This document shows, one piece after another, positions 30,794-62,300 of a stretch of 64,000 bases of DNA (within the stretch, counting starts at the first letter, position 1; each line of letters opens with the position of its first letter). The notes beneath the pieces are model-generated. The model saw only the letters and a program-made list of their open reading frames with translations. It was not told the origin of the DNA and made no database searches. The DNA comes from a virus (lineage: Duplodnaviria; Caudoviricetes). The stretch lies in the IMG/VR virus record IMGVR_UViG_3300010429_002123, one strand, 5' to 3'. Both the position numbers and the translations under genes were made by a program.

Positions 30794-30812
30794 CTTATTT
30801 TTACAAAAAGTA

Positions 30813-30841: not shown

Positions 30842-31587
30842 GTTTTTAGTGAAAGAACTAAAAACGAAACGGAGGAAAAGAAAATGATGAAAAGTGAATT
30901 CGAGAGATTAATAGGGAAAGAAATTTCCCAAGAAAACTACAAAGTGGTGGAGACAGTATACGCCCACCACTCTCTTATTTCAGACGTGGAGGGCAAAAAA
31001 CAGGTAGAGAGCCTCTATAATCAGTTTGGTCTGGGTATATTCCACGATATGTTACCTCACGCCGAAGCACAGATGGAACTCGACAGGTCTATCAGAATGT
31101 TCAAAAATATGTTAGATGAAGAGACCCGTCACGAAACCCTTCAGGAAAACACTGTGAGGTTTCACGAGGAGCTTCGAAAAGAAGTTTCCCTTGAAAAGAG
31201 ACCGGAAATCACCAGAAAACTCGCTACAGCAGAAGAAGGTCTTCTCAAAGCTCAAAAAGAAAGAGCCCGACTTGAAACCCTTTTAAACGAGTGTGTAAAC
31301 CTTAAAAAGGCTCTTACCTCAAGAACAGCGGGAGCTTACGACGTGAAAAAGCACGCTATAGCCCTGAGACAGGCCGAAGTAGACCTCGGAACTATAAGGA
31401 AAGAATGTGCTTTCTAAAAACAAAAAGGAGGTTACTTATGGATAACTTATTCGTACACCTCTTGGTAAGAGAACATGCCCGTGAACAAATAAGGTGCACA
31501 ACTTTTCAAAGACCACCCACAGGACTGTTACTCAGAGTTCTCCTGTGGAATTTGCAAAAATAAATAGAGGAAAAAGGAGGATATAAC

Positions 31588-32800: not shown

Positions 32801-33237
32801 AATGTATCACATAATTTACACAACAAGCTCTCTGGCTATCTTCCCCCATGTGTTCAGTGAAATAGTTATTATTCTTCCGGTCTTTCCTGTTGGGTATGAA
32901 AGCTATATGGCTGACAAACGCTTACGCATAGGCATAGAAATACAAACGTCTATATGGAAAAATGACCTTGCTGTCATTGATGTTTATGAGAGATGTTCAT
33001 GGTGCCTCTCAGCGGAAAACAAGGAGCAGAGTAACCCTCCCACCACGTCTATGTATGCTATCTATGTGGACTTAAAGTCAGGGGTGTGTGGTATGAACTC
33101 TGAAAAAGAAAGCCATACAAATTTATTCGGGGTATGCTCTTTTTGCGAGACCAATCACGCTTTAGAGAACTCTTTAGGACGAAGTATCACGCTGGAGGAG
33201 GTGAAAATAAATAGTTAACTATTTTTTACAAAATGGC

Positions 33238-33266
33238 TTGACATAGTGAGGGAACTATGTTATACT
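33238..33266 (+). promoter_or_regulatory. promoter
   Basis: TTGACA-17-TATACT. Confidence 0.8.
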
Positions 33267-33302
33267 TTAGGGAGTGAAAGAATTTTATAAGGAGGAGATA
33301 AG

Positions 33303-33815
33303 ATGTTAAATCAAAACGGAAAGCAGGCTGTGGAGGAAATAATAAGGATTTTAAGAGAGACTGGTGAGGGACTGGAGACCCCTCACCAACAGATACTCAT
33401 TAAGCAGGCCGAAAGACTCGAAACTATGCTCCCGGCCATGATAAGACCTATGCCCCCGCAAAAAGAGTTGCTTGCGAAGCGTTTTCCTGAGGCAGAACAC
33501 AAGACGAGAAAAGGTGCTCGTGGGAAACAGCTCACCTATGTAGAAACTGTAAATTACATAGACAGGTTAAATGAAATATTCGGCCTGCACTGGAGCTGGG
33601 AACTGACTGAGCAGGGTGCTGACGAAGTAGGTGTGTGGAGTCGTGGAAGGCTCACTATCGAGATAGACGGGAAAACGGTAGTTAAAGAGGCATACGGCGG
33701 GAACGACAAAAATGGAGAAATCGGGGACGCCCTGAAAGGTGCTTCTTCTGACGCCCTCAAAAAAGCCTGTTCACTGCTTGGTATGGGTCTTTACATGTAT
33801 AGAGATAAAAAGTAA
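33303..33815 (+). CDS. Rad52/Sak-like ssDNA annealing protein
   Basis: LTYV...IDRLNEIFG..W...KGASSDALKKA...GMGLYMY. Confidence 0.9.
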   Translation: MLNQNGKQAVEEIIRILRETGEGLETPHQQILIKQAERLETMLPAMIRPMPPQKELLAKRFPEAEHKTRKGARGKQLTYVETVNYIDRLNEIFGLHWSWELTEQGADEVGVWSRGRLTIEIDGKTVVKEAYGGNDKNGEIGDALKGASSDALKKACSLLGMGLYMYRDKK

Positions 33816-36258: not shown

Positions 36259-36774
36259 ATGCTGTGCATGAGGGAAAAGAGAAGAAGACTCCTTAAATTG
36301 AGGCAAGAAAAAGCCTCACAAAAAGCGGAAATTTCCGCAAAGTCCGAAGCCCTTGAGACAACCCAGGTAGAGGCACAGAACAGAGAACAGAAGGTAGTAA
36401 GGTGGAGAACTTACTACCGGGATAAAGAAAACTTAGTGGTAAGCAGAAATCAGAAGGGTCATTATTACGTAGTCACAAACACCCTCACAGTAAGGTGTTA
36501 TAAAGTGACAAAAAAAGAAGGCACAAATAAAGGTTCGTGCACCTGTGAAGACTACGTAAAAAACACAGAAAAAGGTAAAGACGTGGTGTGTAAACATATG
36601 CTGGCTGTAAAAAGAGGAGATGAGAAGAGAAAAGCTGAAGAAAACGGGTTACCTTTCCTGGACATTCCCCCGGTAGACTTACTGGGAGACGAGCTTTTTG
36701 AAAAACAGATATTAAAAGAAGGCTTCAAAAGAAGTCAAAGCCTTGTGGATGGGTGGAAAACTCTGAAAAAATAA
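36259..36774 (+). CDS. SWIM zinc-finger protein
   Basis: CTCEDY...CKH. Confidence 0.8.
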   Translation: MLCMREKRRRLLKLRQEKASQKAEISAKSEALETTQVEAQNREQKVVRWRTYYRDKENLVVSRNQKGHYYVVTNTLTVRCYKVTKKEGTNKGSCTCEDYVKNTEKGKDVVCKHMLAVKRGDEKRKAEENGLPFLDIPPVDLLGDELFEKQILKEGFKRSQSLVDGWKTLKK

Positions 36775-36998
36775 TGTTTGCTAATTTTTACAAAACGTAT
36801 TGACAAGTAGGGTCAGGTGTGCTACACTAAAAGAAAAAGGAGGAAAAACTATGTTAGAACCAGTAGATAGATACCTAAGCACTCTGGAGGAAAGTTCCCC
36901 AGAGAAAGAAGAAAAAAGCCCCTCAGAAATGACTGAGGAAGAGTTTGTAAAATTTTTACTTACGGTTCCATTCTAGTTTTTCCAGATAGGAGGATATT

Positions 36999-39804: not shown

Positions 39805-40201
39805 AAGATTTAAAATAAGATTTTGAACAAGAAGGAGTGGTAAGAGTGGACGAAACCGTCACAAAAGATACACAGACAGCTACGATGCAGACACGGGAAG
39901 GGTATAAAAAGGTTACTAAAATGTACACCTCAAAAGGCAAAGTCATCAGAGAAGACAGCCCCTTACAGGAGACTATCTTTGTTCGAGACTTCTTAGGAAC
40001 CTCAGGAAAAGTTTCCATTAACCTGGGAATGACTCTCTCCCTCGGAGAAGGCACCTATGAATTCGTAAGGGTTGACGTTGGGGTTGAACTTCCCTGTTAC
40101 CCGGAAGAACTAAAAGAAGCAAAAACCACCGCATACGAATTCGCAAAAAGTGAGTTATTTGCGAATGCTCAGGAAGTGAGAGAAAAAATACCAAAGTAAA
40201 G

Positions 40202-40510
40202 ACATCGACGGAAAGTTAAAATACGTGACAAATCCAGTCACTGTCTCGGAGTTAACTTCTTTTTAGAAGTTTCTGAGACAAGGCTTAGAAAGTTTTCAGT
40301 GAGTCAGCCACTTAAAGAAAACGAGTAATTAAGCCAATCTAGCTGGTTTCCGAGGAAACATGGTTAGAGGGAAAGACGATAGGGGTGTTTTTGTCAACTT
40401 TTCCGAAGCTCAGTTTCTTAGGGAACATGTTTAGATGGAAAGTACGCCTCATACCTTTCACCTCGACTTCTCTTGAAAGTGTTTCTAAGGAAACATGGTT
40501 AGTTGAAAAG
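40202..40510 (+). CRISPR. cassette 7: scaffold plus mini-array
   Basis: Repeats 40346-40375, 40413-40442, 40481-40510; spacers 37 and 38 nt. Confidence 0.9.
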
Positions 40511-40548
40511 GGAAAGGGAAAGCGTTCAGATGGAAAGGTGGAAAAGTA

Positions 40549-41088
40549 ATGAAAAGAGAAGAGAACGGAAAAATAAAGAAAAAACACGTGCCTGCTAAAG
40601 TATTCCCTCCAGGAGAGTTCCTTAAGGAAGAACTGGAAGAGAGAAACTGGACAAAGGAAGAACTCTCTCAAAAAACAGGGATACCCCAGCAGGTAATAGA
40701 AGACATATTAAATCACAAAGGTGAAGTGACAGAGGAAATAGCTTCTCTTCTCGCTAGAGCTCTGGACGAACCGGAAGATTACTGGGTATGTTTGAGCAGA
40801 AACTACTTCGAGAGAAAAAAAGTCATTGCCCTCGAAGAGTCAAATCCTTGTAGATGCGGGGGAAGGGTCAGACATACAGGAAAGGTATATTATACCGCCC
40901 CGGCTTATTATGAAATGAAGTGTGATGAGTGCGGGAGAATAAAAGACATAAAAGAGGCTCCCAGTATTCCTGTAATAGAGTGTACAGAGGAAGAACTCTT
41001 CAAAAGACATCCTGAGGTGAGAGAACTTTATGAGAAGTTTCCTCATTTACGAAGAAGTGAGTCCGAAAAGACATCGACGGAAAGTTAA
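40549..41088 (+). CDS. HigA-like HTH plus Zn ribbon
   Basis: VFPPGEFLKEELEERNWT...YW; CRCG...CDECG. Confidence 0.75.
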   Translation: MKREENGKIKKKHVPAKVFPPGEFLKEELEERNWTKEELSQKTGIPQQVIEDILNHKGEVTEEIASLLARALDEPEDYWVCLSRNYFERKKVIALEESNPCRCGGRVRHTGKVYYTAPAYYEMKCDECGRIKDIKEAPSIPVIECTEEELFKRHPEVRELYEKFPHLRRSESEKTSTES

Positions 41089-41347
41089 AATAAACGACAA
41101 ATCCAGTCGTAGACTCGAAGTTAACTTCTTTTTAGAGGTTTTTGAGTCGAGGGCTTAGAAATCTTTCAGTTTATAGAAAGCAAGTAATCAAGCCCGGCTA
41201 ACGGGTTTCTGAAGAAACATAGTTAGTTGGAAAGTTAATTGGAATACCCATTTCAGACAGTTTCGAGAGCACGGTTTCTGAAGAAACATGATTAGTTGGA
41301 AAGAAAAAGAAGGTCAAGGTTCTGAAGAAACATGATTAGTTGGAAAA
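41071..41347 (+). CRISPR. cassette 8: scaffold plus mini-array
   Basis: Repeats 41205-41234, 41274-41303, 41318-41347; spacers 39 and 14 nt. Confidence 0.9.
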
Positions 41348-41392
41348 TAAAGAGTTAATAGAGAAATTACATAATAAAAAAGGAGAGAGTGT

Positions 41393-44053
41393 ATGAGCAG
41401 AAAAAAAGTATCCCTGGAGGAAACTCTGGCCGCTATTAACAAGAAGTTTGGAAAAGGAACTATAATGCCTGTGAGTGAAGCAAAAAGCCTGAATTACATC
41501 AGAATTCCCACAGGTATTTTTAGTTTAGACGTTGCTGTAGGGGCTGGTTATGGTCTTCCGAGGGGAAGAGTTTCTCTTATAATAGGAGAAAAGTCCACAG
41601 GGAAAACGACTATATGCATGAAGACGATTGCTACCTGGCAGAAATACTGTAGATTCTGCAATACGGAGATAAAAGACCGTATAATAGAAATAGAACCGAA
41701 GGAAGAAATAAAACCCGAAGTAAAAGAAGAGGTAAAACCTGCAGTAAAGGGAGGAAAAAACACCCCTGAACCGGTAAAAGGGAAAAAACCTCCCGAGCCA
41801 CCAAAAGGAAAGAAACCTCCCGAACCTCCGAAAGAAGAGAAAAAGAAAGTTCAAAAAATTGTCACTAAGTGTGAATGTGGTAAAAACAAACGTATGGTCT
41901 GTGTGTATCTCGACGGAGAGGGAACTTATGACCCTCTATGGGCAAGTCATCATGGCGTAGACAATACCTCAGTAATAATGTTACAGCCTGAGTTTGCGGA
42001 ACAGTGTGCTGACGTTGTAGAAGAGCTGATACGCACTGGGGATGTTGACTTAATCATCGTTGACAGTATCGCAGCCCTCGTACCTGCCTCTGAAATAGAA
42101 GCTAGTGCAGAAGACCAGCAAATGGGAACCCACGCGAAAATGGTGAATAGAATGTGCCTGGAAGGAAACCAAAGGGTAATAAACGAGCTTACTGGAGAAC
42201 TTATCCGAGTTAAAGACTTAAAGGCTGGAGTTACGCTTACTTCCGTGGGAGAAGACAATAAAATAAGAAAGAACGTGGTTACAGAAGTGTTTAAAACAGG
42301 TAGAAAAGACTGCCTGAGGATAAACAACACACTGGTTCTCACAAAAGACCACTTAGTTTTTACAGACTCTGGCTGGGTAGAGGCTGGTAAACTCACCCGT
42401 AATCATCTTATCGCAAGACCAAAAAACCTTCCAGTTTTTACCACAGGAACCTCGGACTTTTTTAATGTGGAAGCCCGTCTCCTCGGTTATGCCCTCTCTG
42501 CCGAAGGTAACCCGGAAGCCTGGAAACGCGGGGGTAAGCACGAAGTAGAAGATAAAAGAAGAGCCATAGAGTTCTTTGGAGAAAGACTTCCTCTTCTGAC
42601 CTTTGAAGACTACAGTCAAATACTTTCTTTAGACCTGGGAAAAGCTCCGCATTTGAGAAGGTATAGAGACTTGTTTATAAAACATAACCTGAGTAAAGAG
42701 ACTCTCGGGATTATTCCTAAGGCCATCTTTGGGGGAGATATAACCCAGATAAAAAACTTTATAGAAGCCATGTGGACAGGAGGAGGTCTGGTCAACCCCA
42801 CAGAAAAAACGTTGACTTACTTAACCGTTTCTGAGACCCTGGCTTATCAGTTAAGACATCTCTTATTAAGGTTTGGAGTATGGGCGTCACTCGGTGTAAG
42901 CGAGTTCTCCTCAAGGTCTTACCCCTATGGGAAAAGATACCTTCTTACCGTAGCGGGTAAACAAAATGTGAAGAGATTTTATGAAGCCTTCTCTCTCTTA
43001 GACGAGAAGCAAGACAGGTTAAAAAGAATAGTAGAAAGATGGAAAAATCAATCTGAATTACCTATTCCCGCACAGGAGCAATGCACTAAAAAAGAGGTGG
43101 AAACCTTAATAGCTCTCTTAAAGAAGAAGAAAATATCTGGAACAGATGTTTGTTGCTTCATAGGTCTTTGCCGGAATGCTTACCCGGAGCACAAGGTCTA
43201 CACCTATGAGATATTAAAAAACCTCGTAGTTAAGTTTGGTCTTCAGGAGTTAATTCCTATGCTTGAATCTGACCTCTGGTACGAGCCTATTATAAATATA
43301 GAAGAATATGGGACTGAAGAGGTCTATGACATTTCCATGAAAAATGAAGAAAACTTCCTGTGCGAAGAGTATGTGGTGCATAACTGCAGGGCTCTCAGTT
43401 CCTCTATGAACAGTCTTGGGATAGAGTGCGAGACAAAACCCCATGTAATTCTGATTAACCAGAAGAGAGACAAGCTGGGCTTTTTTGGAGGTACTACCAT
43501 ACCAGGTGGAAAAGGCCAGTGGTACACAGCAGGCATAATAGTAGACATGAGAACCCCCCATAAAATCGGAGAAAACGGAAAGTTAGACCCAAAACAAGAC
43601 AGCAGTGACTATTACAAGACCGTAGAAACAGTAGGCTCCCTTCATAACTTTGAGGTTGTGAAAAACAAGACTTATATCCCTTTTAAACGTGGGTCTTTCC
43701 GCATCTACGGCCAGACTTGTAATAATGAAAGCCTTTCTGTCAGAAAGGGAGAAATAAACACGGAAGAACAAATATTACGTGTAGGTTTAAATACTGGAGC
43801 TATTTTGCTGAGAGGAACCTCCTATGTATTTCAAGACGTTATCTTTGGGATAGGAAAAGAGAAGGCTCTACAGGCGTTAAAAAGTAACCCGGAGTTACAG
43901 GAGAAAATAAAGGTTGTTATTCTGGAAAATATAAAAAGTGAGCTGGCTTCAAGCAGGGATTTATTTGAGGCTAACCAGGACATGCCCGACGGAATAGACT
44001 CCCTGTCTTTTGAACTTATGTCTGAAGAGCCCACAGAAGACAGTGGAGAGTGA
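41393..44053 (+). CDS. recA: RecA-family recombinase with intein
   Basis: IPTG..SLD.A.G, GEKSTGKTT, VDSIAALVP..E, INQ.R, PGG, KNK. Confidence 0.92.
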   Translation: MSRKKVSLEETLAAINKKFGKGTIMPVSEAKSLNYIRIPTGIFSLDVAVGAGYGLPRGRVSLIIGEKSTGKTTICMKTIATWQKYCRFCNTEIKDRIIEIEPKEEIKPEVKEEVKPAVKGGKNTPEPVKGKKPPEPPKGKKPPEPPKEEKKKVQKIVTKCECGKNKRMVCVYLDGEGTYDPLWASHHGVDNTSVIMLQPEFAEQCADVVEELIRTGDVDLIIVDSIAALVPASEIEASAEDQQMGTHAKMVNRMCLEGNQRVINELTGELIRVKDLKAGVTLTSVGEDNKIRKNVVTEVFKTGRKDCLRINNTLVLTKDHLVFTDSGWVEAGKLTRNHLIARPKNLPVFTTGTSDFFNVEARLLGYALSAEGNPEAWKRGGKHEVEDKRRAIEFFGERLPLLTFEDYSQILSLDLGKAPHLRRYRDLFIKHNLSKETLGIIPKAIFGGDITQIKNFIEAMWTGGGLVNPTEKTLTYLTVSETLAYQLRHLLLRFGVWASLGVSEFSSRSYPYGKRYLLTVAGKQNVKRFYEAFSLLDEKQDRLKRIVERWKNQSELPIPAQEQCTKKEVETLIALLKKKKISGTDVCCFIGLCRNAYPEHKVYTYEILKNLVVKFGLQELIPMLESDLWYEPIINIEEYGTEEVYDISMKNEENFLCEEYVVHNCRALSSSMNSLGIECETKPHVILINQKRDKLGFFGGTTIPGGKGQWYTAGIIVDMRTPHKIGENGKLDPKQDSSDYYKTVETVGSLHNFEVVKNKTYIPFKRGSFRIYGQTCNNESLSVRKGEINTEEQILRVGLNTGAILLRGTSYVFQDVIFGIGKEKALQALKSNPELQEKIKVVILENIKSELASSRDLFEANQDMPDGIDSLSFELMSEEPTEDSGE
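42155..43384 (+). mobile_element. intein in RecA (410 aa, degenerate LAGLIDADG)
   Basis: M|CLEGN...TKDH...VYDI...VVHN|C. Confidence 0.9.
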
Positions 44054-44539
44054 AGGGGGTAACTAAATGGAAATAGTAAACTTTAAACGTGTGAGAATAA
44101 AAGAAGAGGGAAGAGACAAGCCTAAATACATAGGTTTTATTTGTGACTCTTACTTTATCTCATCACGAATAGTGGAAAAACATATGTACCGAGGTGGAGT
44201 AGGAACCATAGAAGAATGCAGAGAAGAAGGTTTGGCAAGCTGGGGATTAGACAGAAAAGTAGCCGAAGGTCTTGAGGTCAATGGTGTGAAAGAAATTCTT
44301 TTAGTCACAGACAAAGGCTACTTTAAAATAGGTGTAGACACTTTTCTTGACGAAAGTTTTTCAAAAACCTTTCATAACTTTCGAGAGCAGTTCTTCGCCC
44401 GAGAAAAGTTTTTCTCAAAAGCAGAGGGGGACGAGACTTCTGAACAGTTTGTAGCTCTGTTTAGACCCGAAAGAAAAGACTTGGAACTTCTCCTTGACCG
44501 TATAAAAGAGCTATCCTTCAGAGGACAGGAGGACTTGTC

Positions 44540-45070
44540 TTGAAAACAGAAGGACAAAAATTGAGTAAAAAGCAGGAGAAGCAAACAGAAAAAGCTCTAA
44601 AAAAACACGGTTTTGTTAACCCTACCAGAACTCCCGGAAGTGGGAACAAATCTTTAAAGGGAGACGTCATTACAGACACACTGATGATAGAGTGTAAAAT
44701 CACGTCTAAAGAGCAGATAGGAATAAAGAGGGATTACATAACGAAACTCATAGAGGAGAGTATAGAAGCAGAAAAAGAGCCTGTTTTTGAGTTCGGCTTT
44801 TCCGGTATTAGTAATTTTGTGGACTTTACATGGATGGCTGTCCCAAAAAGCCGTATGGAAGAGCTTTTTAAAGAAGAAAAGACTACCCCCTTTGTAGTAA
44901 AGGGCAGAGGAACTAAACAGGTATCTATAAAGTATGAGGTGTTAAAAACCCTCCTTACGCAAGCACAGGAGCCATTGTTAGAGTTCACTTTTTCCGGTCT
45001 AGAACCCTGGTGGGCAGTTCCGAGAGAGCAACTATTAAAACTCTTATTCTCAGAAAGGGGGGAGCGGTAA
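44540..45070 (+). CDS. PD-(D/E)XK Holliday-junction-resolvase-like nuclease
   Basis: E...PGSG...GDV...IECK. Confidence 0.75.
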   Translation: MKTEGQKLSKKQEKQTEKALKKHGFVNPTRTPGSGNKSLKGDVITDTLMIECKITSKEQIGIKRDYITKLIEESIEAEKEPVFEFGFSGISNFVDFTWMAVPKSRMEELFKEEKTTPFVVKGRGTKQVSIKYEVLKTLLTQAQEPLLEFTFSGLEPWWAVPREQLLKLLFSERGER

Positions 45071-45557
45071 GTGGAAGACCTCTATGACAACTCCCTCTCT
45101 CTGGGGGAAAAGGTTCTTTACTTCTCTCTGGGAGTAATAACCTGTTGTATATCTGTAAGTATAGTCAAACGGTTGTATAAGGTGACAAAAAAGAGGAAGA
45201 TATATGGGGCTTATCGTTAGAGAAGACCTGGTTCAGGACTTAAAAAACACAGAACAGTTATTGGACAAGACCCTTTCTTTAGCCCGAACGCTTATACATA
45301 AGTATGAACAACCGGGTATGGGGCTGGGGGAAGAACTCCCTTACGAGTTCTGGAACTTGCTCAAAGAAGTAGACTGGACAACGACGTGGTTTCTTGAACA
45401 CGCCTTTGACAAAGAGGAAACCCCTCTTTACACAGACGGCTTACTTCTTTTTGAATCCTGTTGTCTGGGACTGGAAAAACATATGAGAGATACGAAAAAA
45501 CTCTGTGGGATATTTAAGATGATGGCCACACTCTTTCGAGATAAGACCTTAACTATA

Positions 45558-45955
45558 ACATCGACAGAAAGTTAAAATAAGCGACAAATCCAGTCGCAGT
45601 CCTGAAGTTAAGTCTTTTTTAAGACTTTTTGGGACAGGGCTTAGAAAACTTTCAGTTTATAGAAAGTGAGTAATCAAGCCAAACTAACGGGTTTCTAAAG
45701 GAACATGGTTAGATGGAAAGTATGTGGAGACCGTGCACTACATCGACCGGCTTAACGTTTCTAAAGAAACATGGTTAGATGGAAAGCATGGGCAACTTAC
45801 ATTAGTAGCTTCATTGGCAACAAGGTTTCTAAAGAAACATGGTTAGATGGAAAGGTTACTATGTTTCTAAGGAAACATGGTTAGTTGGAAAGATTCGAAA
45901 TAGTCTATATCTACTTTTTTATTGTGTTTTTGAATAAACATGGTTAGTTGGAAAG
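45558..45955 (+). CRISPR. cassette 9: scaffold plus five-repeat array
   Basis: Repeats start at 45691, 45757, 45825, 45863 and 45926; spacers 36, 38, 8 and 33 nt. Confidence 0.93.
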
Positions 45956-46929
45956 TGGTTATATAAAAAGATTAAAGGAGGAAAATTTATGAAAAAGATT
46001 ATGTGTGAAACTTGTAAATTACAGATGGTACCAGACCGGTCTGTATGCTACACGAGTAACCCACCACAGTATGACTATAAGTGCTTTAAGTGTGGGCAGG
46101 TAAAGTTGGTGGCTGACGACCTCCCGTTAGAGGGGGAAGCCCTCTTTAGAAAGATAAACAACTTAGATGAAGGTATCACGCAGTTAAACGAGAGAAAAAG
46201 CGTGTGGCTGTCCGAAACAATGGACGGTATGGGAACTGAAAACTCAATCTTTTTGGAGGATTAACAATGCAACTGATGAATAAACTATGCAAGACATGTG
46301 GGGAAAGAATCATAGGGGTTCGCCCGCAAAACAGTAACCGCATAGATAAGAAGACAGGGAAGTTTACTGACGGAGATTATCCCATGTGGGTATGTCCTAC
46401 CCTGATGGCTCAATGTGCCTGCACGGCAAAAGGAAAGAACCCCGTTGTAGCAGATTCTTATCAGGCACTCTGCAATATAAGAGTAGCTTACGAATTTTCT
46501 GCCCGTAACAAGTCTGTTTGTATGGGCTGTTATTACCCCGAAGATGACTGGGAAATAGTCGAATACGGGAACACTCTCGAAGAACTCGCGGACAAAGTAG
46601 CGAAAAAACTGGTAGAAACAGAGATAGAGATAGAAAATCCAGAACTGTCTAAAGTGAGACTTCTGACTTATGAAGACCAGGAGTTCAAACTGGGTTGGGA
46701 ATCTTTCGCGGAAGTAGAAACGGAACCCTTCATTCAGAGCGTAAAAGAATCAGAAACTTACAAAAACCTTATAGAAGCAAAGAGAGTAGAGGCAGAAAAA
46801 GAAAAAAAGGAAAAAGAAGAGCAGGCAAAAAAAGCTCTGGAAGAACGAGAAAGAGCCGAGTATGCGAGGTTAAAAGCAACATACGAGCTCATAGAAAGAG
46901 AAAATCAGGAAGAATAAAGGAGTAAACTA

Positions 46930-48633: not shown

Positions 48634-48863
48634 GACCAAGATTGTCTCACTATACCGTAAGAAAGAAGGGTGAAAAAACTATGTCTATTACAGAGATAGC
48701 CATAAAGAACCGAAATGAGGCGAAAAACTTTCTCGATAACCTCCACATTAAACACAGAGAGACTCTTGTAAAAGAGGGGGCTCTCCGGGAGAACGAGAAG
48801 TTCTGGGGGTGTGATGAGTGTGGCTGTTATCTAAGAGAATTTCGCCCCGAAGAAAAAACAGAC

Positions 48864-48917
48864 CAGTATACTCAGGATACTCAGGATACTCAGGATACTC
48901 AGTATACTCAGTATACT
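48864..48917 (+). repeat. six 9-bp coding tandem repeats (CAGKATACT)
   Basis: Encodes QYT/QDT x6 in ORF 48642-48992. Confidence 0.85.
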
Positions 48918-49549
48918 GCGGAAAAACACTATATAATTATACCAGAAAACGGAACCAGATTTTTTCACGAGAAAATCGCCTGCTTTATCTGACAGGAAAG
49001 AAGGGTAAGAAATGCCAGCAGACACTCAAAGTTCGGCTACATTAAGTCTGGGTGAGGGGACAGTGAGTTTTAACGGGCGTAGCATAGGCTACATTCAGGG
49101 TGAACTCACTGTGTCTTACCCCCCGTCCCCAAAAAACCGGGTGAGACTAGACTTTACCTGCCACGTGTGTGGGAAGTCTGTAAGGTGTAAGGGAGGACGG
49201 TACGCCCACGAAGGCGAAATAGTTACAACATATTGCCCAAACTGCAAGCGAACAACTCGGGGGAGACTCACCATAGTTTATTTTATGTCCGGGTCACCTC
49301 TGGGTAAGTTAAAAAGCAGTTATTATCTTGCGAAGCTCTCACCTATCGAGGAGAACCTTTCTCAGAAAAGTTCTTGCACGATAGAAGAGATAGAAAGAAC
49401 ATGATTTTTTCTTTATAAATTAGGGTTCTACATCAGGAAAAGAGTTGACTCAACCCCTACCTGTATGTTACAATAAACATGTGATGAAAAGTCACAAGCC
49501 TCTGAAAGAGGCGAGGGATTAGAAGTCCCACATTAAAAGAAGGAGTGAT

Positions 49550-50998: not shown

Positions 50999-53900
50999 GT
51001 GCAGATATTACAGACAAGACAGGTCATAGCATTTGATACAGAATACGTAGACCGTGACTTTCCTAACGTTGATGTAGTAGGAATGTCTCTTGCATGGAAA
51101 GAGAACGGCCACGTAGACGGTTGTTACATACCTGTTGGGCACACAACGGGGGAGTCACAGTTACCTATAGAACTCGTTGCCGGGGCTATGAAACCCATAC
51201 TAGAAGACCCCGAAAAATTGATAGTCATGCACAACATGAAAGCTGACATAAAAGCGTCCTGGCTTATGGGTATTTACATAGCGGACGCTCCTTACTGGAA
51301 CGCCCTTCTGAACGAGGGGATTACTATTCCTTACAAAAAAGCCATAAGAGAAACCCACTTATGGGACACCATGCTTGCCTCCTGGATACTCGAACCGGAA
51401 AGAGAAATTTCTCATAAGTTAAAAAAGCTTGTAAAAGAACTTCTCGGGTATGAGATGCAGGAGCTGACAGACTTTGCTCCCAGAGAAAAAGCCTTGTTTA
51501 CAAAAACAGGAAAACCAGTTAAGTTAAAAGCTAACGAAGTTGCCCCTGATGAAACGAAGGTTCAGATATTAAAAAAGAGCAAAAAAGCTCTTCTGAGAGT
51601 AGATAAAGTCCCCATAGCCTCCCTCGGCAGGTACGCCTGGGACGACGCCGTGTGGACTTATAAACTGTATGAATACTTCAAAAACATCATAGAAACCTCA
51701 AATGCGGGGAAGGATAACAAGATTTTCTATGAAGTTCAACTCCCCTTTGCTGTAGTGCTTACGGAAATGGAAATCATAGGCTCTCCCATAGACGTCGCTT
51801 TACTGAAAGACATGGAAACAAGAGCAAAAGCAGAACTGGTAACGATAGAGAATAGGATTTACGAGTTGGCAGGAAAAACCTTTAACATAAAGAGCACAAA
51901 ACAGTTAAATGAGGTGCTTTTTGACACTCTCGGCTTAAAGCCTGAGGGTGACATGAACAAAAAAGGGGAATACTGCACAGACAAAGACGTAATGAGAAAA
52001 TATAAGAGAGAGTATGATGCCTTTAAGGCAGGTCTGCAGAAAAAGGGGGCTGAATGTGAAATAGCCTACTGGATGCTAAAACAGAGAGAGCTTACTAAAC
52101 TCATCGGGACATATCTGGAAGGTCTCGTCCTGTTTGCCAAAAACGGCAGAATTCATACCAGTTTCAACCAGCTTTCAAAAGATGAGAGAACCGGAACAAA
52201 AACCGGGAGGTTGAGTTGCGTGGCTAAAGATACGTTACTCTATGTAAAGACCGGAAGAGGCCGGGGAAAACTTCAGGAAGTTGAAATATCCAAACTTGAC
52301 TTGACCATACCCACGAGAATTATGACATGTGAGGGAAGATATAAACCCATAAACAAACTGATTTTCAAGGGTGAGGACGACCTCTACGAAATAACCACAA
52401 CTGCCGGGTGGAGACTGGTATGCACAAAAGAGCATCAAATCCTAACCCCTCACGGATGGTGGGTATCTGTTGGAGGCTTATTCGTAGGGCAAGAGGTCTA
52501 CGGAAACAAGCATAGGTGCACTCCTACAAACTGCACAGGTTACAAAAGAAGCTTCATAACCGCTATACGTCCCTTTGGAAGAGGGGAAGTATGGGACATA
52601 GAGGTAGCAGAAGACCAGTCTTACTACGCCGGAGGCTTTTTAAACCATAACAGTTCGAATCCTCAAATGGGGCTACTTTCCGGTGACGGAAAGTTAGAAT
52701 CTCTGTTAACTCGGTGGAATCTAAGTTTCTCTCCAGAGGAATATGACAATACCGAGCCGAGCTTCGCAGGAATGCGAAGAAGGTGTAACGACTACCTTGA
52801 TGTAATCTAGAACAGATAGAAAAGGCACGAACACAGAGTATCTTAGGTTGATTACCAAGATTGACAAAATATTTCTCCCGTCTATAATAAGAGCGAGGTG
52901 AAGAAAAATGAGAAATGATTGGACTAAGTCTGAAATAGCGTGGTTCAGAGAAAACTACCCAAAACACGGGTTGCATTACTGTTCTGATATTTTAAAAAGA
53001 ACCACAAGTGCCATTCTAATGAAGGCACATTTATTAGGTTTAAAAAGACGAGGAAAAGGAAGAAAAGACAGGGTGTATACATACGACGGTTACATTACTG
53101 TTTCCTCTGAGGGTGATAGATACCAAGTGCACAGAAGAGTAATGGAAAACCATATAGGAAGGAAACTGTCAACAAAAGAGTTAGTTCATCACAAAGACGG
53201 AAACAGAAAAAACAATTCCATTGAAAACCTAGAAATTTTGTCAAGAAGTGAACACATGAAAATTCACTACCCGCAGAGAATGAGAAATTCAAAAGGTCAG
53301 TTCGCCTAAGATAAAGATATAGTCTGAACTTGCGGGAAACCGCAAGAATTTCAGGATAAAGAGCCTGAAAGGTAACAAAATGAATTTGCAGAACATCTCA
53401 CATAAGTCAGACTATAAGGTAAGGAAAGCCTTTAGTTCTTCCGGGGAAGAGGGCTGGAAATGGCTGAGACTGGATTACTCACAACTGGAGTTAAGAGTGG
53501 GAACTCACTTCAGCAAAGACCCGGAGATGATGAAAGTCTACATGAACGATGGAGACATTCACAGCACCACGGCAAAAGGAAGTTTTAATCTAGACTGTGA
53601 GGCCAGCGAAGTCAAGGCAAAATATCCCGGTTTTCGGGACAAAGCAAAAGTCGTCAACTTCGGTATGGTAAAAAATGCCGAAGCGGGGGAAGATGTAATC
53701 CCCATTAAACCTGCTCAAAACGGGGGAATCCGAAACATAGGCCAAAATCAGCTAAGTTGTGGGCTATCCCGTGCTACTCTTAAGGACAAGCGTAGTGTAT
53801 CGACTTTGCTTACTCGGTGTAGGGTAAGCATAAATAAACCGTCTGTTCTCTACTAATTAGAGAATAAATCAATCGAGTTTATTTACACGGCAGGCAAAAT

Positions 53901-56900
53901 GTGCTAAAGTTAATATAAAGGAGTGGTATGGATGACTGACGGACAGAAACTTTGTAAAAAATGTAAACTACCTTTTATACTAACAGGAAATAATCAACAA
54001 TATTGTCTTTTTTGCAAAGAGGACAGAGCAAGGGAGAGAGGGAGACTTCGTTACAAAAATACCCGCGTAACCCCCGTAAAAAAGGAAAGATTGGTTGGGA
54101 AAAATCACCCGGGGTTTAAAACGGGCGTAGGTCGTAGTTACTATTGTAAACTCGCCTTCTCAACATATGGGAAAATTTGCTGTCTCTGTGGGGGGTTACA
54201 GAACTTATGTGTTCACCACAAAGACGAAAACAGGTTTAATAATGAGGTTGAGAACTTAGAGGTTATCTGCAGAAGATGTCATGCTAAAAAGCACAATCTT
54301 CATAAGTCTTTACCAAAAGGGAATCGGTTGTCAGAGTGCAAAAAAGAGCAAGTAAAAACTTTTAAGAGGGACGAAAACGGAAAATTTATTAAAAAGCACA
54401 TTTAAAGGTATAGTCACACTGTATAGAAATTTACAGAAAAAGGATTTTTTACGGAATGGGACCAAGTTCTCTTGCAGAAACCATAAACAAAGAACTTGAC
54501 GACCCAAGAGACTTTTTAACGGAGGAAGAAGCTAAAAAAGCTATTTCAAACTTTATGGCTACTTACAAAGGCGTTTCACGTTATATTGAAAAATATAAAG
54601 ACATAGCCAGAGAAGTCGGGGTTGTAAAAACCCTGACAGGAAGAGCTCGCCCCTTACCCGCAGCGATGGTTAAGGCTCCCTGGAAAATAGCCGACCCGAA
54701 GGAGAGAAAAAAAGCTATTGAGGAAAAAGGACACGCCGAAAGGGCTGCGGTAAACTGCTTCGACGAAGAAACAGAGGTGCTTTCCCAAAGAGGCTGGCTT
54801 TCTTACAAGAACTTAACTGCCTCAGATGTGTTAGCCACAATAACGGGGGAAGGTGTTTTAGAATGGGACACTCTAATAGCTGTCAGTATGTTCCCGGGCT
54901 ATGATGAACCATGCATAGAGTTCTCTCACCCGGAAATAAGTGCCCTTACAACCAAAAATCACAGGTGGCTTGTATATGACAGAGTAGAAGCCAAAAACTT
55001 TTTTGTAACTACTGAAAATCTTTGTGCCCGGCACGAGATATTAAAAACTGCTACAAACCCACAGAAAGAAGCAGGTATTTCAGACATGGAACTTCTGAAA
55101 CACCCCCTTTCTCTGGAGTTTCTACTAAATCTGTCCCAAAGACAGTGCAGACTTCTTTTAGAAACCCTGATAGGAACAGGGTCTACTTCAATAAGCCCTG
55201 ACCTCTACCAGATACTGTGCTTTTTATCTGGGAAGAGCTATGAACTCTCCTTTAGAAACCTGTCTTCATACGCTGGATACACTCCCGGAAAGGACAGAGT
55301 TTATCTCCTCCCTGAGCACAAAAAAGAGAAAACAGTCTCTTTTGTCTGGTGCCCTACTGTAAAAAACGGGACGGTTGTGGTCAGAAGAAAGGGCACGGTT
55401 TATATCACCGGTCAAAGCCCCATTCAGGGGTGTCTCCCATCTTCCGCTCGAATTCTAACCCTTGAGGGATACAAGACTATAGACAACTTGATAAAGAGTT
55501 ATCCCGGAGAGAGACTGCAGGTATGGACGGGTTTTAACTGGAAACCAGCAAAAGTTCTCCCTATGGGTAAGGCTCCACTCATGAAAGTGACTTTTAAAAA
55601 CGGCTATAGTGTAAAGTGTGACAACCGTCACAACTTTAAAGTCCTTTCCGACAAACTGGAGTGGAAAAATATCTTGTCTCTTAAAGAGGGGGATATGGTC
55701 GCCACTCCTTACGGAGAGCAACACTTCGGGCAATACAACGCGAGAAACCTGGACATCTACAGGGGTAGAAATATTTGTGAACGGAGGTTTGACTATAATC
55801 TTCTCTTTTACCTCTCAGGTTTTCTGCTTTCGAGGGGAGAAATCATAGATGAGGGTGAGAAAACTCACATAAAGATTAGATTTACAACTTCTCTTCTTTC
55901 TAGTCGGGTCATAACCCTTGAAGAAAAAGTAAGAAACGTGCTTGTTAAATCTCTCTTAGAGAATGGAATCCTCTTTACCTGTGAGAGCAGGCGAAGAGAC
56001 GTGGGGACATCCCCCCATTCAGTTGTTGACCTTATAATAACTGACCAGCAGTTGCTTAAAGTTTTCTTAAGAGAGTTTGACGTCAGGAGTGGAAAAGTCC
56101 CTGAGCACATTTATAAGAGTGTCCACCCCTTACGCAGGCTGTTCTTAAAAGGTCTCGTGGAGGGAGGAGGACAACTCGACGGGAATAAAGTAATTCTTAC
56201 TTTTTCTGAACGTAATCTGGCTGAAGAGATAGCCTTTCTCTTAACCTCCGGGGGTTTTGTCTTCGAGGTAAAGAACTCTCCTAAGCTATCTCTATACCAG
56301 ATAACAATACAGCACAAACACGCCTTCCTGGCCTGGATTGGAATTTTCTCCGGCTCTTTCTACAACAGGACGAAGAAAAAATGTCCCGATGTATACATAA
56401 AAGAGTTTTTTGAAAAATTCACCCGAAACGCCAGAGGAAGGGTTACTCCCGGAATAACCCGCCAGTCCTACAGATACAAAGAACTGTTAGAGAAAAGACC
56501 AGAAAAATGCCATTTACATTTCCTGTACAAAATGGCAAGAGATTTCGGAATTGTCTTTGACGAAAAGTATGACTACCTTATAGTAGATAAAATTGAGTAT
56601 CTCGGTGAGGAACAGGAGATGTACACCCTTTCTGTTGACGACGACTTACATCAATTCGTAGCAGACGGGGTAATAGCCAAGAATAGTGCCGCCGACATAG
56701 TCTCAATAGCTATGAGAAACATTCGCCTGAAGCTCATGGAGACCGGAGACTGGTGGAAAAATTGCCAGCTCTTAATCCAGGTGCACGATGAGCTCAATTT
56801 TTTGATAAAGGAAACAGAGATAGAAAGGTTAGTTCCTCTCATAAAAAGTGAGATGGAAAGTGCGGTTAAGCTAAGAATACCCCTGGTGGTGGATTACCTT

Positions 56901-56930
56901 GTTGGGGTGAACTGGTTTGAGTGCAAGTAG
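50999..56930 (+). CDS. polA: family A DNA polymerase; exons ~50999-52663, 53383-53664 and 54444-56930; three inteins
   Basis: AFDTE exonuclease motif; spliced TGRLSSSNPNLQNI, DYSQLELR, AKVVNFGIFYGMG, NSPIQGSAADI, QVHDEL. Confidence 0.93.
52217..52651 (+). mobile_element. mini-intein 1 in Pol (145 aa)
   Basis: LS|CVAKD...TKEH...VWDIEV...NHN|S. Confidence 0.9.
52664..53382 (+). ncRNA. group I intron 1 in Pol
   Basis: Exon ends in U (CCT), intron ends in G; AAGATATAGTC element; splicing restores SNP-NLQNI. Confidence 0.9.
52908..53309 (+). CDS. intron-encoded HNH homing endonuclease
   Basis: HR.VME...VHHKDGNRKNN..ENL; internal promoter TTGACA-16-TATAAT at 52861. Confidence 0.9.
   Translation: MRNDWTKSEIAWFRENYPKHGLHYCSDILKRTTSAILMKAHLLGLKRRGKGRKDRVYTYDGYITVSSEGDRYQVHRRVMENHIGRKLSTKELVHHKDGNRKNNSIENLEILSRSEHMKIHYPQRMRNSKGQFA
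53665..54443 (+). ncRNA. group I intron 2 in Pol
   Basis: P1 CTTCGGT.AT/ATGCCGAAG with U-G pair; AAGGTATAGTC element; terminal G; splicing restores NFG-IFYGMG. Confidence 0.9.
53923..54405 (+). CDS. intron-encoded HNH endonuclease
   Basis: CCLCG...VHHKDENRFNN..ENL...C..CH. Confidence 0.9.
   Translation: MVWMTDGQKLCKKCKLPFILTGNNQQYCLFCKEDRARERGRLRYKNTRVTPVKKERLVGKNHPGFKTGVGRSYYCKLAFSTYGKICCLCGGLQNLCVHHKDENRFNNEVENLEVICRRCHAKKHNLHKSLPKGNRLSECKKEQVKTFKRDENGKFIKKHI
54756..55415 (+). mobile_element. intein 2 in Pol (220 aa, ends Gly-Gln)
   Basis: N|CFDEETEVL...TKNHR...VWCPTV...ITGQ|S. Confidence 0.85.
55431..56684 (+). mobile_element. intein 3 in Pol (418 aa, ends Lys-Asn)
   Basis: QG|CLPSS...MYTLSV...IAKN|S. 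Confidence 0.88.
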
Positions 56931-59387: not shown

Positions 59388-62300
59388 ATGCAAGTAAACG
59401 GATATTTCAGATTAAAGAAGGACCACCCCCTCGTCCCAGAATTCAAAAAAGACTGTGTCCTTCCAAACCCTGAGTATTTAAACAACTTAAAGATGGGAAT
59501 ATCTACAAAGGGTCTTTCCCCCACAGACTTACTCTACGAGCAGGAAGGAGACGAAATTCTCTTTCCCAGAGGAATGGCCAACCGGCTAAAAGGAACAGAA
59601 GACATCAGGGACTCCATGTCTTACGGTAAGGCCGTAAACTTCAAAGAAAGAATAACCCTTCGACCAGGTCAAAAATCTTTTTATGAAAAGTTTGTAAAGG
59701 GTGTTACTGACCTTTATGGTGCCAGTGCTCAGGCCGGGTGCGGACAAGGAAAATGTCAGACACTTTCTACTCCTGTCCTTACGCCAGAGGGGTTCAAAAC
59801 TCTTGGAAACATTCTTCCCGGTGACATGGTAATAGGCCGGGACGGAAAACCCACGAGGGTGTTGCAGACTTTCAGAAACGGAGAAAAAGACTGCTTCAGA
59901 GTAACCTTTAGTGACGGAAGTTTCGTAGACTGTGATGATGACCAGCTATTTCAGCTAAAGAATTCGGAAGCTCCTGTCACTCTTAAGAAAATACGGAACA
60001 GTCCCCCGGAAAAATTGGAAGTCCCTTTGTGTGAACCTGTAGACTTACCGGAAAAAGAGCAGGTGTTCTCTCCTTACTTACTTGGACTTTTGCTCTCAGG
60101 AGGGGCTTTTAAAGAGGGAAAACTCTATCTGTATGACAAGAATGAGCAAGCTAAAAACACGGCAAAAAGTGCCCTTTTAAAAACCCACAAATTAACAGGT
60201 CTTCCGCTGGGAAACAGCAGAACTTTGATATTTGAAAGATTAAAAAATGTTTCGGAGGAACTTGACAAACTCCTCCAAGATTCCCTGTCTTCGCCGGAGC
60301 AACTCAAGAGTGTAGGAGGCTCTTCTTCTAAAATACCTTACAATTACTTATTCGGGAGTAAAAGCCAGAGAAAAGCTCTTCTTCAGGGTGCTCTCGACAT
60401 GGGAGGAAGGGGAAAAGCAAATGTCTGGGACTTCAAAACACAGTCAAGAACCCTGGCAAGAGGGTTAACCTTTCTGGTAAGCTCTCTCGGTGGTACTTGC
60501 ACAAGTTTTTCCAGAGAAAAAACCTACCATCTCAGAATTGTCCTTCCTGAGGACTTCTCCTCCCCGGAAGGCTGCGGGGAAACTCCCCATAAAAAAATAA
60601 AAACAATAGAGCCCATAGGAAAGAAAGAAGTAGGATGTCTATTGGTAGACAATAAAGACCATCTTTATTTAGTAACTGAAACCTGTACAGTAATACACAA
60701 TACAGTGGTGTGTCTAAAAGTAATAGCGTCCCTGCAGAAAACAGCTCTGGTAATTGTGCATAAGACCTTTCTTGTAAACCAGTGGATAGAACGCATACAG
60801 GAATTCTATAATATAGAAGATAAAGACATAGGAATACTCTCAGGAGATGACATAGACTGGGCAGACAAAAAGATAAGTGTGGCCTTAGTACAAACACTCC
60901 TGGCTAAAGACCTCCCAAAAGAGTTCTATAACTACTATGGAACAATCTGTGTTGACGAGGAGCACAGGTTCGGGGCAGGAACCTTCAGAACAGTGATATG
61001 GAGATTTCCCGCAAGATACCGCCTGGGGGTCACGGCAACGCCCACCAGAAACGACTGTCAGGAAAAGGTATTCTTTACACACATAGGAAAAATAGTCTCT
61101 GTAATGTCTGACAGCAGAAAACAGCAGGTGGACGTCCACATGGTAAAAACAAATATTCCTCCCATTACTAACGAGAGACCCTTCTATGACTTCAGAAAAA
61201 AGATAAATCTCACTAAGGTTGTATCCTTCTTAATAGAATGCGAGTCTCGAAACCTTCAAATACTCAACTACCTCGTCAAGGCTGCGGAGAAAGGCCGAAA
61301 AATATTAGTATTAAGTGATAGAAGAGGACATCTGGAAACATTATCTTCTTTATTAAAAGCCTATTGTAAAGCAAATGAACACAAAAACATAAACATTTCT
61401 CAAGGGTATTACATGGGAGGAATGAAGCAGGAAGACTTAGACATTTCTACAACAAAAGACGTGATATTCGGCACTTTTGCAATGGCCTGTATAAGCGAAG
61501 AACAGGACTTTATTGACTACGTGACAGGGGAAACACAGAAATTTAAAAACCTTGTCGGAAAAAGCGTAAACTGCATTACCCATTCAGGAAAGATAACACA
61601 GTCGGGAAAAGTCATTTCTTCAGGTAAAAAAGAGTGCTTTAAACTGACACATTCCTTTGGGGACGTCTTAGCTACGGCAGACCACAAAGTCTTAACCGAA
61701 AAAGGCTGGGAAGAAGTCGCTAAGCTATCTTTACAGAGCCATCTGAGCCTCCCCAAAAAATTGGAAATAGAACAGGTCATAGACACTCCTATAAAAACCA
61801 GCGAACTCTGGCTATTAGGCTGTTTCATAGGTGACGGAAGCATGAGCCAGTATAAAAAAGGGGTCTTGTCGTTCATTTCCGCAGACGAAGACGTCCTAAG
61901 AAACGTGAAAAGCATTTTAGAAACACATAACATGACCCTTAAAAAAGTGCGAAAATACCGTTACAGAGTCTGTGGGGAGGGAAAAAACGGAAAGGGAGTA
62001 AAAACATGGTTAAGACATCAGATAGAAAACCTCGGACTCGGGGTCACGGCACGCAGTAAAGAAATCCCTCAGCCCTTTCTACTTCTCCCGGAACAGAAAA
62101 TAGGAAGTCTGCTCGCTGGACTGTTCGACACAGACGGGTGCGTAACTAAAAGAGGAGAGATACTTTTCTCTTCATCTTCTCAAAAATTAGTAACACAAAT
62201 TAAGTTTTTACTCTGGAGGCTGGGTATTTTTTCAACCCTCTACCCGTCGGCGGAGAATATGATGTTTGTCCTAAGCATCTCCCGGAATTTTAGCGAGCAG

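Follow-up and report, generated by a model that had tools for sequence, protein, structure and literature searches.

Introduction

Nucleases derived from the transposon protein TnpB have already been described as CRISPR-associated effectors, among them the TranC clades, Cas12f and Cas12n, the phage Cas12r and CauTranC9, and in the accepted model of their origin the guide RNA of the transposon, the omegaRNA or reRNA, was split to give a tracrRNA (trans-activating CRISPR RNA) as well as a crRNA (CRISPR RNA) (PMC13565253; PMC13639567; bioRxiv 10.64898/2026.03.27.714800; bioRxiv 10.64898/2026.04.20.719267). For TranC and compact type V systems, the derivation of both RNAs from a functional split of the reRNA is credited to Jin et al. 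2025, as cited in PMC13565253 and PMC13639567. Here we describe a locus at positions 45558-45955 of a 64,000-nucleotide (nt) stretch of phage DNA, IMG/VR virus record IMGVR_UViG_3300010429_002123, in which a structured RNA element runs directly into the first repeat of a short array; the whole stretch is referred to as the window. It is likely, in our judgement, that this element is the scaffold of a phage-encoded RNA-guided nuclease system that arose from a TnpB transposon, and that it descended from the omegaRNA (reRNA) of an ISCbt1-like IS605 element. As judged from sequence, the system is a TnpB-derived type V (TranC-like) system, and it resembles a naturally occurring stage midway from the guide RNAs of transposons to CRISPR arrays.

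The phage locus shares with TranC, Cas12f and Cas12n a TnpB-derived nuclease that lies beside short arrays with no adaptation genes nearby, and a repeat that represents the 3' end of the reRNA, the scaffold being the remainder. Phage-borne members, such as CauTranC9, also exist among the TranCs. Unlike TranC, the RNA of the phage is unsplit as far as the DNA alone can tell, the anti-repeat is just 5 nt long, and the unit has been multiplied and dispersed. The phage effector comprises 774 amino acids (aa) as compared with about 300-600 aa for the reported TranCs, and its N-terminal 400 aa are without a sequence relative.

One natural RNA that joins scaffold and guide for a class 2 effector is already known: Cas9 of Streptococcus pyogenes has tracr-L, a single-guide RNA of natural origin (bioRxiv 10.1101/2020.05.21.102756). 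However, tracr-L is a type II RNA, unrelated in RNA and protein, with a guide intrinsic to the tracrRNA and an autoregulatory function, whereas the guides of the phage are array spacers, none of which has a close match in the genome of the phage itself. Cas12r of Thermus Lalka phages uses crRNA alone, with neither tracrRNA nor scaffold, from one array beside the gene (bioRxiv 10.64898/2026.04.20.719267), and resembles the phage system in having a TnpB-derived effector, short degenerate arrays and no adaptation genes. Archaeal viral mini-CRISPR arrays are without an effector or scaffold of their own and use the Cas proteins of the host (PMC6858448). As in the Cas12r phages and the viral mini-arrays, the spacers of the phage point to conflict between mobile elements or related viruses.

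The omegaRNAs of ISCbt1-like elements (Clostridium phage c-st, Geobacillus virus E3 and C. difficile phages) have the same helix order as the phage scaffold, and share with it the GUUAA internal loop in a two-part stem 2, a 5' strand of stem 3 reading AAGxCUUAG, and a terminal hairpin followed by a short tail and then by a guide covalently joined to the scaffold. One of the scaffold-array units (cassettes) of the phage, cassette 3, also stands just 3' of the nuclease gene as in these elements, and covariance models detect the kinship in both directions. Unlike the ISCbt1-like elements, the phage record contains neither TnpA nor transposon ends; where the right-end hairpin CCCCAC..GUGGGAG would be, there is a CUAAC/GUUAG helix round a GUUUC/GAAAC hairpin; the 3' module is tandemly repeated with unique spacers, with 13 copies per one nuclease; and the nuclease is about 280 aa longer than its TnpB relatives. 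No description was found in the literature of an array-bearing system with the scaffold fused to the first repeat (a form that Jin et al. 2025 may contain), of such a unit at 13 or more dispersed cassettes for one effector, or of an effector with an orphan, enlarged N-terminal half.

Results

A structured RNA fused to the first repeat

Bases 23699-87698 of the 183,650-bp virus record, read on the reverse strand, make up the window; for the record, CheckV estimates a completeness of 78%. A first-pass annotation of this DNA had described nine copies of a pre-array element as a covarying structured RNA fused to repeat 1, and all nine were located, each running into repeat 1. The unit of about 150 nt consists of a three-stem element of about 110 nt that continues directly into a 30-nt repeat, and repeat 1 ends at 9045, 10106, 12775, 17917, 18772, 22609, 40375, 41234 and 45720. 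With a covariance model built from the nine window copies, four further full copies, one repeat-less copy and one stem-1 fragment were found outside the window in the same record, which brings the number of full copies to 13, fragments aside. In all 13 the scaffold passes without a break into repeat 1, whereas the sole repeat-less copy is without the anti-repeat and has a broken stem 3. The units are dispersed across more than 120 kb, and all cassettes are intergenic and in sense orientation. The focal cassette, number 9, has the following parts (window coordinates).

45558-45580, plus strand: leader ACATCGAC..GTTAAAATAA, before stem 1, overlapping the stop codon of the open reading frame (ORF) 45204-45575
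45581-45597, plus strand: stem 1, GCGAC/GTCGC, with the near-invariant 7-nt loop AAATCCA (TCCA at 45589-45592)
45599-45606 with 45628-45635, plus strand: outer part of stem 2, 8 bp; the whole of stem 2 spans 45599-45635
45610-45616 with 45621-45627, plus strand: inner part of stem 2, 7 bp
45638-45680, plus strand: stem 3, long-range GGCTT(AG)/..AAGCC, with an inner hairpin (45648-45653 with 45662-45667) and a variable apex
45684-45688, plus strand: anti-repeat CTAAC, pairing with GTTAG (45708-45712) of repeat 1 in the minimum free energy and consensus folds
45691-45720, plus strand: repeat 1, 30 nt, composed of the hairpin GTTTCT..GGAAC, ATG, GTTAG and the tail ATGGAAAG (TGGA at 45714-45717)
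45721-45756, plus strand: spacer 1, the cis-fused guide, encoding YVETVHYIDRLN
45757-45955, plus strand: remainder of the array, repeats 2-5, with spacers of 38, 8 and 33 nt between them

The last repeat of this array is degenerate and is followed by the ribosome-binding site of ORF 45989-46264. The leader is kept ahead of most copies and aligns with the A/T-rich 5' flank of the omegaRNA model; it might be a relic of the 3' end of tnpB.

The variants on which the claim of covariation had been based were all present: GTGA/TCAC, CCGA/TCGG, ACGA/TCGT and GCGA/TCGC in stem 1 round the AAATCCA loop, the outer set of stem 2 together with inner AAGTCTT/AAGACTT versus AACTTCT/AGAAGTT, and GGCTT/AAGCC with its inner variants in stem 3. 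The AGTG/CACT extension was found in copies 6 and 7, and a different hairpin, AGCTC-GAAA-GAGCT, is inserted at the same apex in one copy outside the window; an extra apical stem-3 hairpin is thereby present in three copies, with differing sequences. Consensus folding of the nine copies with RNAalifold predicted 44 pairs, 16 of them with compensatory change. When 14 copies were aligned with MAFFT, 95.1% of the pair cells were paired as compared with 33-50% after the 3' partners were slid by 1-3 columns, 17 pairs changed on both sides as compared with 1-4 in the slid controls, and 0/500 shuffles equalled the observed values. The covariation is concentrated in stem 1 (2/5 pairs compensatory), both parts of stem 2 (5/8 outer and 3/7 inner, with 99-100% of cells paired) and inner stem 3 (4/6). 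The same alignment contained 70 G.U and 10 A.C cells, and the focal copy folded with -42.3 kcal/mol (z -4.2) on the plus strand versus -31.9 kcal/mol (z -3.0) on the minus strand. The excess of G.U and the plus-strand advantage of about 10 kcal/mol indicate that the element is a plus-strand RNA and not a DNA feature. Since the helices are kept by compensatory change and the loop, anti-repeat and tail are invariant in 13 copies, the results indicate that selection acts on the RNA. No family of Rfam 15 matched anywhere in the window at the gathering score.

The annotation had further proposed that the scaffold 3' end, (A)TCTAAC or ACTAAC, covaries with GTTAGAT or GTTAGTT of the repeat. This covariation was not recovered: the 5-bp core CTAAC/GTTAG is invariant, and the next position pairs in 36% of the copies, which is the level of chance. 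A pseudoknot between TCCA of the stem-1 loop and TGGA just before the spacer had also been suggested. The complementarity is indeed present, in 12-13 of 14 copies, and being invariant it speaks neither for nor against the pseudoknot.

Homology to transposon omegaRNAs

The TnpBs nearest to the effector belong to ordinary IS605 elements with a TnpA gene. A covariance model, R2, was built solely from seven omegaRNAs of unrelated elements, taken from the stretches of about 160-190 nt that follow ISCbt1-like tnpB genes. Their common structure has 45 pairs, of which 26 are compensatory, in the order stem 1, two-part stem 2 with the GUUAA internal loop, long-range stem 3 starting AAGUCUUAG, inner hairpin, right-end hairpin and short tail. 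Unfiltered over the 64-kb window, R2 returned the nine scaffolds as hits 1-9, all on the plus strand and in one register, mostly at full length, with E values of 2e-5 to 1.2 and scores of 32 to 11 bits; the best match was cassette 6 (32.2 bits, E 2e-5). On five further tnpB genes the same model found genuine omegaRNAs on the 3' side, with scores from 116 down to 18 bits, and those of the scaffolds overlap with this range. In the reverse search, a scaffold-derived model gave weak matches directly 3' of tnpB in tnpB loci. The ranking by R2 and the overlapping scores indicate that the scaffold is a diverged homologue of the omegaRNA from the effector's clade.

In the alignment, the composite hairpin of CUAAC, the repeat's own GUUUC/GAAAC and GUUAG occupies the place of the transposon right-end hairpin, and by this correspondence the 30-nt repeat is the 3' part of the terminal hairpin module plus the tail. 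The transposon's right-end hairpin and the AAGAACCCC motif are themselves absent from the phage cassettes. An alignment from another model, R1, which placed an internal UUGGAAG against the repeat tail, was rejected because the omegaRNA 3' end lies past the right-end hairpin.

The omegaRNAs have a pseudoknot between the stem-1 loop (GAnAC) and the guide-adjacent tail (GUnUC), with 97% of cells paired and 2/5 pairs compensatory; among the seven, the loop variants GAAAC, GAUAU, GACAU and GAACC face the tails GUUUC, GUAUC, GUGUC and GGUUC. A functionally important pseudoknot has been reported for the omegaRNA of ISDra2 (PMC13639567). The UCCA loop and UGGA tail of the phage sit at both positions of the omegaRNA pseudoknot strands, and on grounds of homology a UCCA/UGGA pseudoknot in the phage scaffold is plausible.

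The candidate effector

The likely partner of the scaffold RNA, to judge from kinship and position, is the product of one gene in the window.

10228-12552, plus strand: candidate effector, a 774-aa TnpB-derived RuvC nuclease

Translation probably begins at the ATG at 10255, after AGGAGG, which gives 765 aa. The protein matched IS605 OrfB of Clostridium, Clostridioides and Geobacillus phages in tblastn (39% identity, E 1e-42), TnpBs of 480-520 aa in phmmer (E values up to 6.7e-65, identity up to 48%) and PHROG 506 (E 5e-27), with weak PADLOC matches to Cas12u4/Cas12f (E about 1e-8). The split RuvC triad, D444 (GIDIG), E560 and D655 (QRD), is invariant in a collinear alignment with 14 TnpB homologues, and the same motifs align with those of Cas12n 9J09, the only solved relative found by profile (E 6.5e-4). 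Additional parts are a basic extension at the N-terminus, an acidic tail at the C-terminus and, following the first strand, an insertion that is well above 100 aa in length. For the N-terminal 400 aa, no sequence homologue besides the protein itself was found among 1.84 billion representatives, and a search for related loci yielded nothing but ordinary TnpBs, matched over the C-terminal half. The N-terminal part, as modelled in the ESM Atlas, came closest to TnpB N-terminal folds, with TM scores of 0.31-0.47.

The gene is flanked by cassettes 1-3, of which the second is under the same promoter as the gene and the third alone is on the 3' side of it; the cmsearch match of cassette 3 begins 73 nt past the effector stop codon, which is the omegaRNA position in an IS605 element. 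The ORF is intact and identical in three independent data sets. Taken with the strand-specific covariation and the omegaRNA homology, the TnpB-derived gene flanked by three cassettes upholds the view of the first-pass annotation that the element is a structured, omegaRNA- or tracr-like scaffold fused to repeat 1 and not a DNA leader.

Outside the window, one cassette is followed about 1.1 kb downstream by another TnpB-like ORF, of only 207 aa, at L021:1456-2079 on the minus strand (G000:C1:158583-159206). Its product contains the RuvC D-E-D triad together with a CxxC zinc ribbon but is without the WED/REC half; it scores 124.9 bits with guided_TnpB and E 4e-29 with PADLOC Cas12u4, and the clade to which it belongs is not that of the 774-aa protein. 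The ORF represents a truncated relic or, alternatively, a mini-nuclease.

Cassettes, repeats and spacers

The other cassettes of the window are listed below, together with a spacer end that two of them share.

8904-9169, plus strand: cassette 1, scaffold and four repeats, spacers of 7, 25 and 2 nt
9966-10144, plus strand: cassette 2, scaffold and two repeats, spacer of 8 nt
12636-12827, plus strand: cassette 3, scaffold (stem 1 at 12636) and two repeats, spacer of 22 nt
17778-18022, plus strand: cassette 4, scaffold and three repeats, spacers of 9 and 36 nt
18633-18868, plus strand: cassette 5, scaffold and three repeats, spacers of 36 and 0 nt
22459-22675, plus strand: cassette 6, scaffold with apical AGTG/CACT hairpin and two repeats, spacer of 36 nt
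40225-40510, plus strand: cassette 7, scaffold and three repeats, spacers of 37 and 38 nt
41094-41347, plus strand: cassette 8, scaffold and three repeats, spacers of 39 and 14 nt
12784-12797 and 40467-40480: shared spacer end CTTCTCTTGAAAGT, in arrays 27 kb apart

A sigma-70-like promoter, TTGACA-17-TATGAT, was read at 9904-9932 on the plus strand, ahead of cassette 2. Since it precedes both cassette 2 and the effector, cassette 2 lies within the 5' untranslated region (UTR) of the effector mRNA. The same promoter arrangement precedes two cassettes outside the window; three cassettes thus have their own promoter, and most are without a recognisable one. One cassette outside the window has just one repeat, preceded by its own promoter and the scaffold and followed by native flank; it is thus laid out like an omegaRNA, as a pure single guide.

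Across the 38 repeat units in the 13 cassettes of the record, TTAG and the closing AAG do not vary, and TGGA hardly does. By length, the spacers form two groups: 16 have 33-39 nt, and many others are short, with 0-25 nt. Spacer 1 of the focal cassette, encoding YVETVHYIDRLN, agrees with a segment of the phage's own Rad52-family gene (YVETVNYIDRLN) in 11/12 residues and 25/36 bases.

33537-33572, plus strand: Rad52-family segment homologous to spacer 1, within the gene 33303-33815 (Pfam Rad52_Rad22, E 4.3e-13)

Ten of the 11 differing bases are synonymous, and the other 15 full-length spacers reach only a background of 6-7/12 residues. Since the residues are nearly kept and the bases have diverged, the results indicate that spacer 1 was probably taken from the orthologous Rad52-family gene of a related phage, and the synonymous differences imply that the phage's own copy would escape spacer 1. 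In the remainder of the phage sequence, no guide was matched over 18 nt with at most two mismatches. A back-translated spacer 1 pattern found nothing in IMG/VR, and a blastn match of the arrays to GenBank phages (E 0.03) was set aside since it falls on the repeats and is not a credible protospacer.

Two side observations concern degenerate units. A repeat-like unit at 17727-17756, just upstream of cassette 4 and within the end of ORF 17282-17752, has a compensatorily altered hairpin with GTAGC..GCTAC in place of GTTTC..GAAAC. Outside the window, a cluster of eight tRNA genes occupies L007:5358-6738 on the minus strand; the repeat-less scaffold copy (L007:5881-6009) begins immediately after the CCA end of one tRNA, and the stem-1-only stub sits between tRNA-Leu and tRNA-Ser. 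The scaffold ends could be defined through tRNA processing; alternatively, former cassettes may have been the insertion sites of tRNA genes.

Searches for relatives and signs of expression

Two exact-pattern scans of IMG/VR found no relatives of scaffold or repeat. Nine single matches to the repeat pattern were obtained in JGI metagenomes, none with a scaffold according to the covariance model, and three single chance matches in GTDB (one genome per species, 185,579 species), where the pattern occurred in no array; blastn of the focal cassette against GenBank phages gave nothing. These searches may omit records of this or very near genomes, and the lack of close relatives is accordingly not firm.

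A metatranscriptome assembly from activated sludge (2018) contains the region without differences, and its contigs bridge from gene through cassette to gene. Across 40000-45720 the contig depths in the RNA library were 31.6, 6.8 and 13.9, as compared with a flat 57.9 in the DNA run, and contigs specific to other cassettes were the deepest in the metatranscriptome library. Contigs show neither RNA ends nor strand, depth is a poor measure and the breaks at repeats are assembly artefacts, so that these values give only a hint of cassette transcription.

The phage and its other repeats

The record encodes a T4-type portal and prohead protease, together with DnaB, a primase, a RecA-like protein, a split family-A polymerase and several inteins, and all genes of the window are on the plus strand. 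The same phage was found at 100% identity in an ENA assembly (a 216.8-kb contig) and in one Logan contig; these represent the same phage and are therefore uninformative on array turnover. The sequencing runs that contain it are from anaerobic-digester and activated-sludge samples.

Intein and LAGLIDADG domains were observed in the RecA-like protein (41393-44053), in the family-A DNA polymerase, which is encoded in two ORFs (50999-52810 with 54456-56930), and in an SNF2/ResIII helicase (59388-62915), indicating a phage rich in homing elements. A family of promoter-like repeats stands at the starts of gene blocks, each with TTTTTACAAAAAG, then TTGACA, then a TATAAT-like box; these are probably early promoters of the phage.

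4795-4871, 5399-5475, 17197-17273, 30786-30862, 33211-33287, 36767-36830 and 63110-63186: promoter-like repeats in the window

A 23-nt tandem repeat at 3224-3361 has three copies fewer (69 nt) in the ENA assembly, which is the sole difference between that assembly and the window across 22 kb. A 9-nt tandem repeat (CAGGATACT / CAGTATACT) lies at 48855-48933, within ORF 48642-48992.

Discussion

The homology of the scaffold to omegaRNAs suggests how the system would work. Transcription would start from a cassette promoter, as at cassette 2 and two cassettes outside the window, or proceed by read-through, and scaffold, repeat 1 and spacer 1 would be made as one RNA that folds like an omegaRNA. 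CUAAC would close on GUUAG of repeat 1, enclosing the repeat's own hairpin, and the 8-nt tail AUGGAAAG would lead into the guide. Loaded into the 774-aa TnpB-derived nuclease, spacer 1 would thus act as a natural single guide; the RNA would be stable and bound by this protein, which would cleave the DNA that the guide selects. The later repeat-spacer units would be tandem copies of the 3' module, namely hairpin, GUUAG, tail and guide. For their use, we favour an alternative pairing of CUAAC in cis with GUUAG of repeat 2, 3 and so on, by which the units in between would be looped out where the terminal hairpin has its tip. The first-pass annotation had suggested that the scaffold acts in trans on later repeats; since the anti-repeat has only 5 nt and the record contains no intact free-standing scaffold, such use is questionable and free action in trans is unlikely. 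The role of the system would be to cut the DNA of related, competing phages, the phage's own Rad52 copy being protected by its synonymous differences.

A more detailed version of this proposal is put forward tentatively, and we think it doubtful as a whole: the phage would represent a step from omegaRNA to array that precedes the split, with the 3' module multiplied, a choice among guides made in cis, and at least 13 sites arming one nuclease from early, middle and late transcripts. Homing guided by the flanks is a further possibility of the same kind, in which the native flank after each last repeat would guide cleavage of cassette-free alleles in related phages.

Several points weigh against an active nuclease system of transposon origin. 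Regarding the RNA, the anti-repeat helix and TCCA/TGGA are invariant among the phage copies and hence without support from covariation there, and all scaffold copies are paralogues of one genome, so that their changes are not fully independent events. Many spacers (0, 2, 7, 8, 9 and 14 nt) are too short to guide, and the cis-fused spacer is just 7-9 nt in cassettes 1, 2 and 4. Cassettes 3 and 7 carry the same 14 terminal bases, CTTCTCTTGAAAGT, in the 22-nt spacer of the former and in spacer 2 of the latter, a sign of recombination among cassettes, of decay or of a common array origin. No protospacer was found in GenBank phages or IMG/VR, in searches that may omit the near relatives of the window. 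Regarding the protein, the match to NCBIfam guided_TnpB (53.8 bits, E 1.9e-14) is under the curated cut-off of 100 bits, the single-sequence AlphaFold (AF2) model was unusable (pLDDT 40), and a second, truncated TnpB-like ORF is present elsewhere in the genome. No CxxC..CxxC zinc ribbon was found, nor any cysteine pairs in that region of the effector; the whole ISCbt1-like clade has SQYNH..Y.K..LS.RW at this position, so that the absence is a trait of the clade and not a defect of the 774-aa protein. In the 78%-complete record neither a Y1 transposase (TnpA) nor Cas1 was found, Cas2 not having been searched for. Reported TranC and Cas12r loci are also without an adaptation module, and its absence does not disqualify the phage system.

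On a rival reading, the cassettes would be decaying relics, remnants of IS605-like right ends comprising the tnpB 3' end, the omegaRNA and duplicated terminal hairpins, which were scattered by recombination and guide nothing, their arrays being junk. Truncated spacers of 0-25 nt occur in 7/13 cassettes, cassettes 3 and 7 have a spacer fragment in common, a repeat-less copy and a stem-1 stub lie among tRNA genes, the record has neither TnpA nor Cas1, and the searches found no relatives. However, junk does not account for helices retained by compensatory changes in 13 copies with loop, anti-repeat and tail invariant, for an effector ORF that is intact with its catalytic triad and identical in three data sets, for three cassettes with their own promoters, or for one spacer that comes from a relative's gene and not from flanking DNA. 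We regard decay as improbable, although it is the strongest of the alternatives.

A somewhat smaller chance is given to a cis-acting mRNA element, that is, a structure which processes, stabilises or attenuates the message independently of any nuclease, with the repeats as RNase sites. The intergenic, sense placement of the cassettes, most of them without a recognisable promoter, the position of cassette 2 in the effector 5' UTR and the RNA contigs that bridge gene, cassette and gene would all suit such an element. It leaves unexplained the omegaRNA homology, the unique spacers of 35-39 nt, one of them from a foreign Rad52 gene, and the clustering round a TnpB-type gene. That the repeats instead imitate a class 1 host repeat (30-nt repeat, spacers of about 36 nt, ..GGAAAG end), either borrowing host Cas proteins or serving as an RNA anti-CRISPR decoy behind an upstream leader, is the least probable reading and very unlikely: the geometry resembles that of type I-B/III arrays and no adaptation module was found in the phage record (Cas1 searched), but what lies upstream is an RNA structure specific to one strand and related by homology to omegaRNA, the repeat pattern is in no array of 185,579 species' genomes or of JGI metagenomes, and the phage encodes its own matching nuclease.

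If the scaffold is that of a TnpB-derived nuclease system, an array with an unsplit RNA would show that multiplication of the repeat can precede the split, and the order of events would be testable at a single phage locus. For genome editing, the phage would offer a ready-made natural single guide, with scaffold and repeat of about 150 nt, and a nuclease with an unexplored recognition lobe. One effector served by at least 13 dispersed guide cassettes, with at least one guide derived from a relative's recombination gene, would clearly amount to RNA-guided warfare between related phages; alternatively, the system may be an RNA-guided counterpart of the homing endonucleases that are common in T4-like phages.

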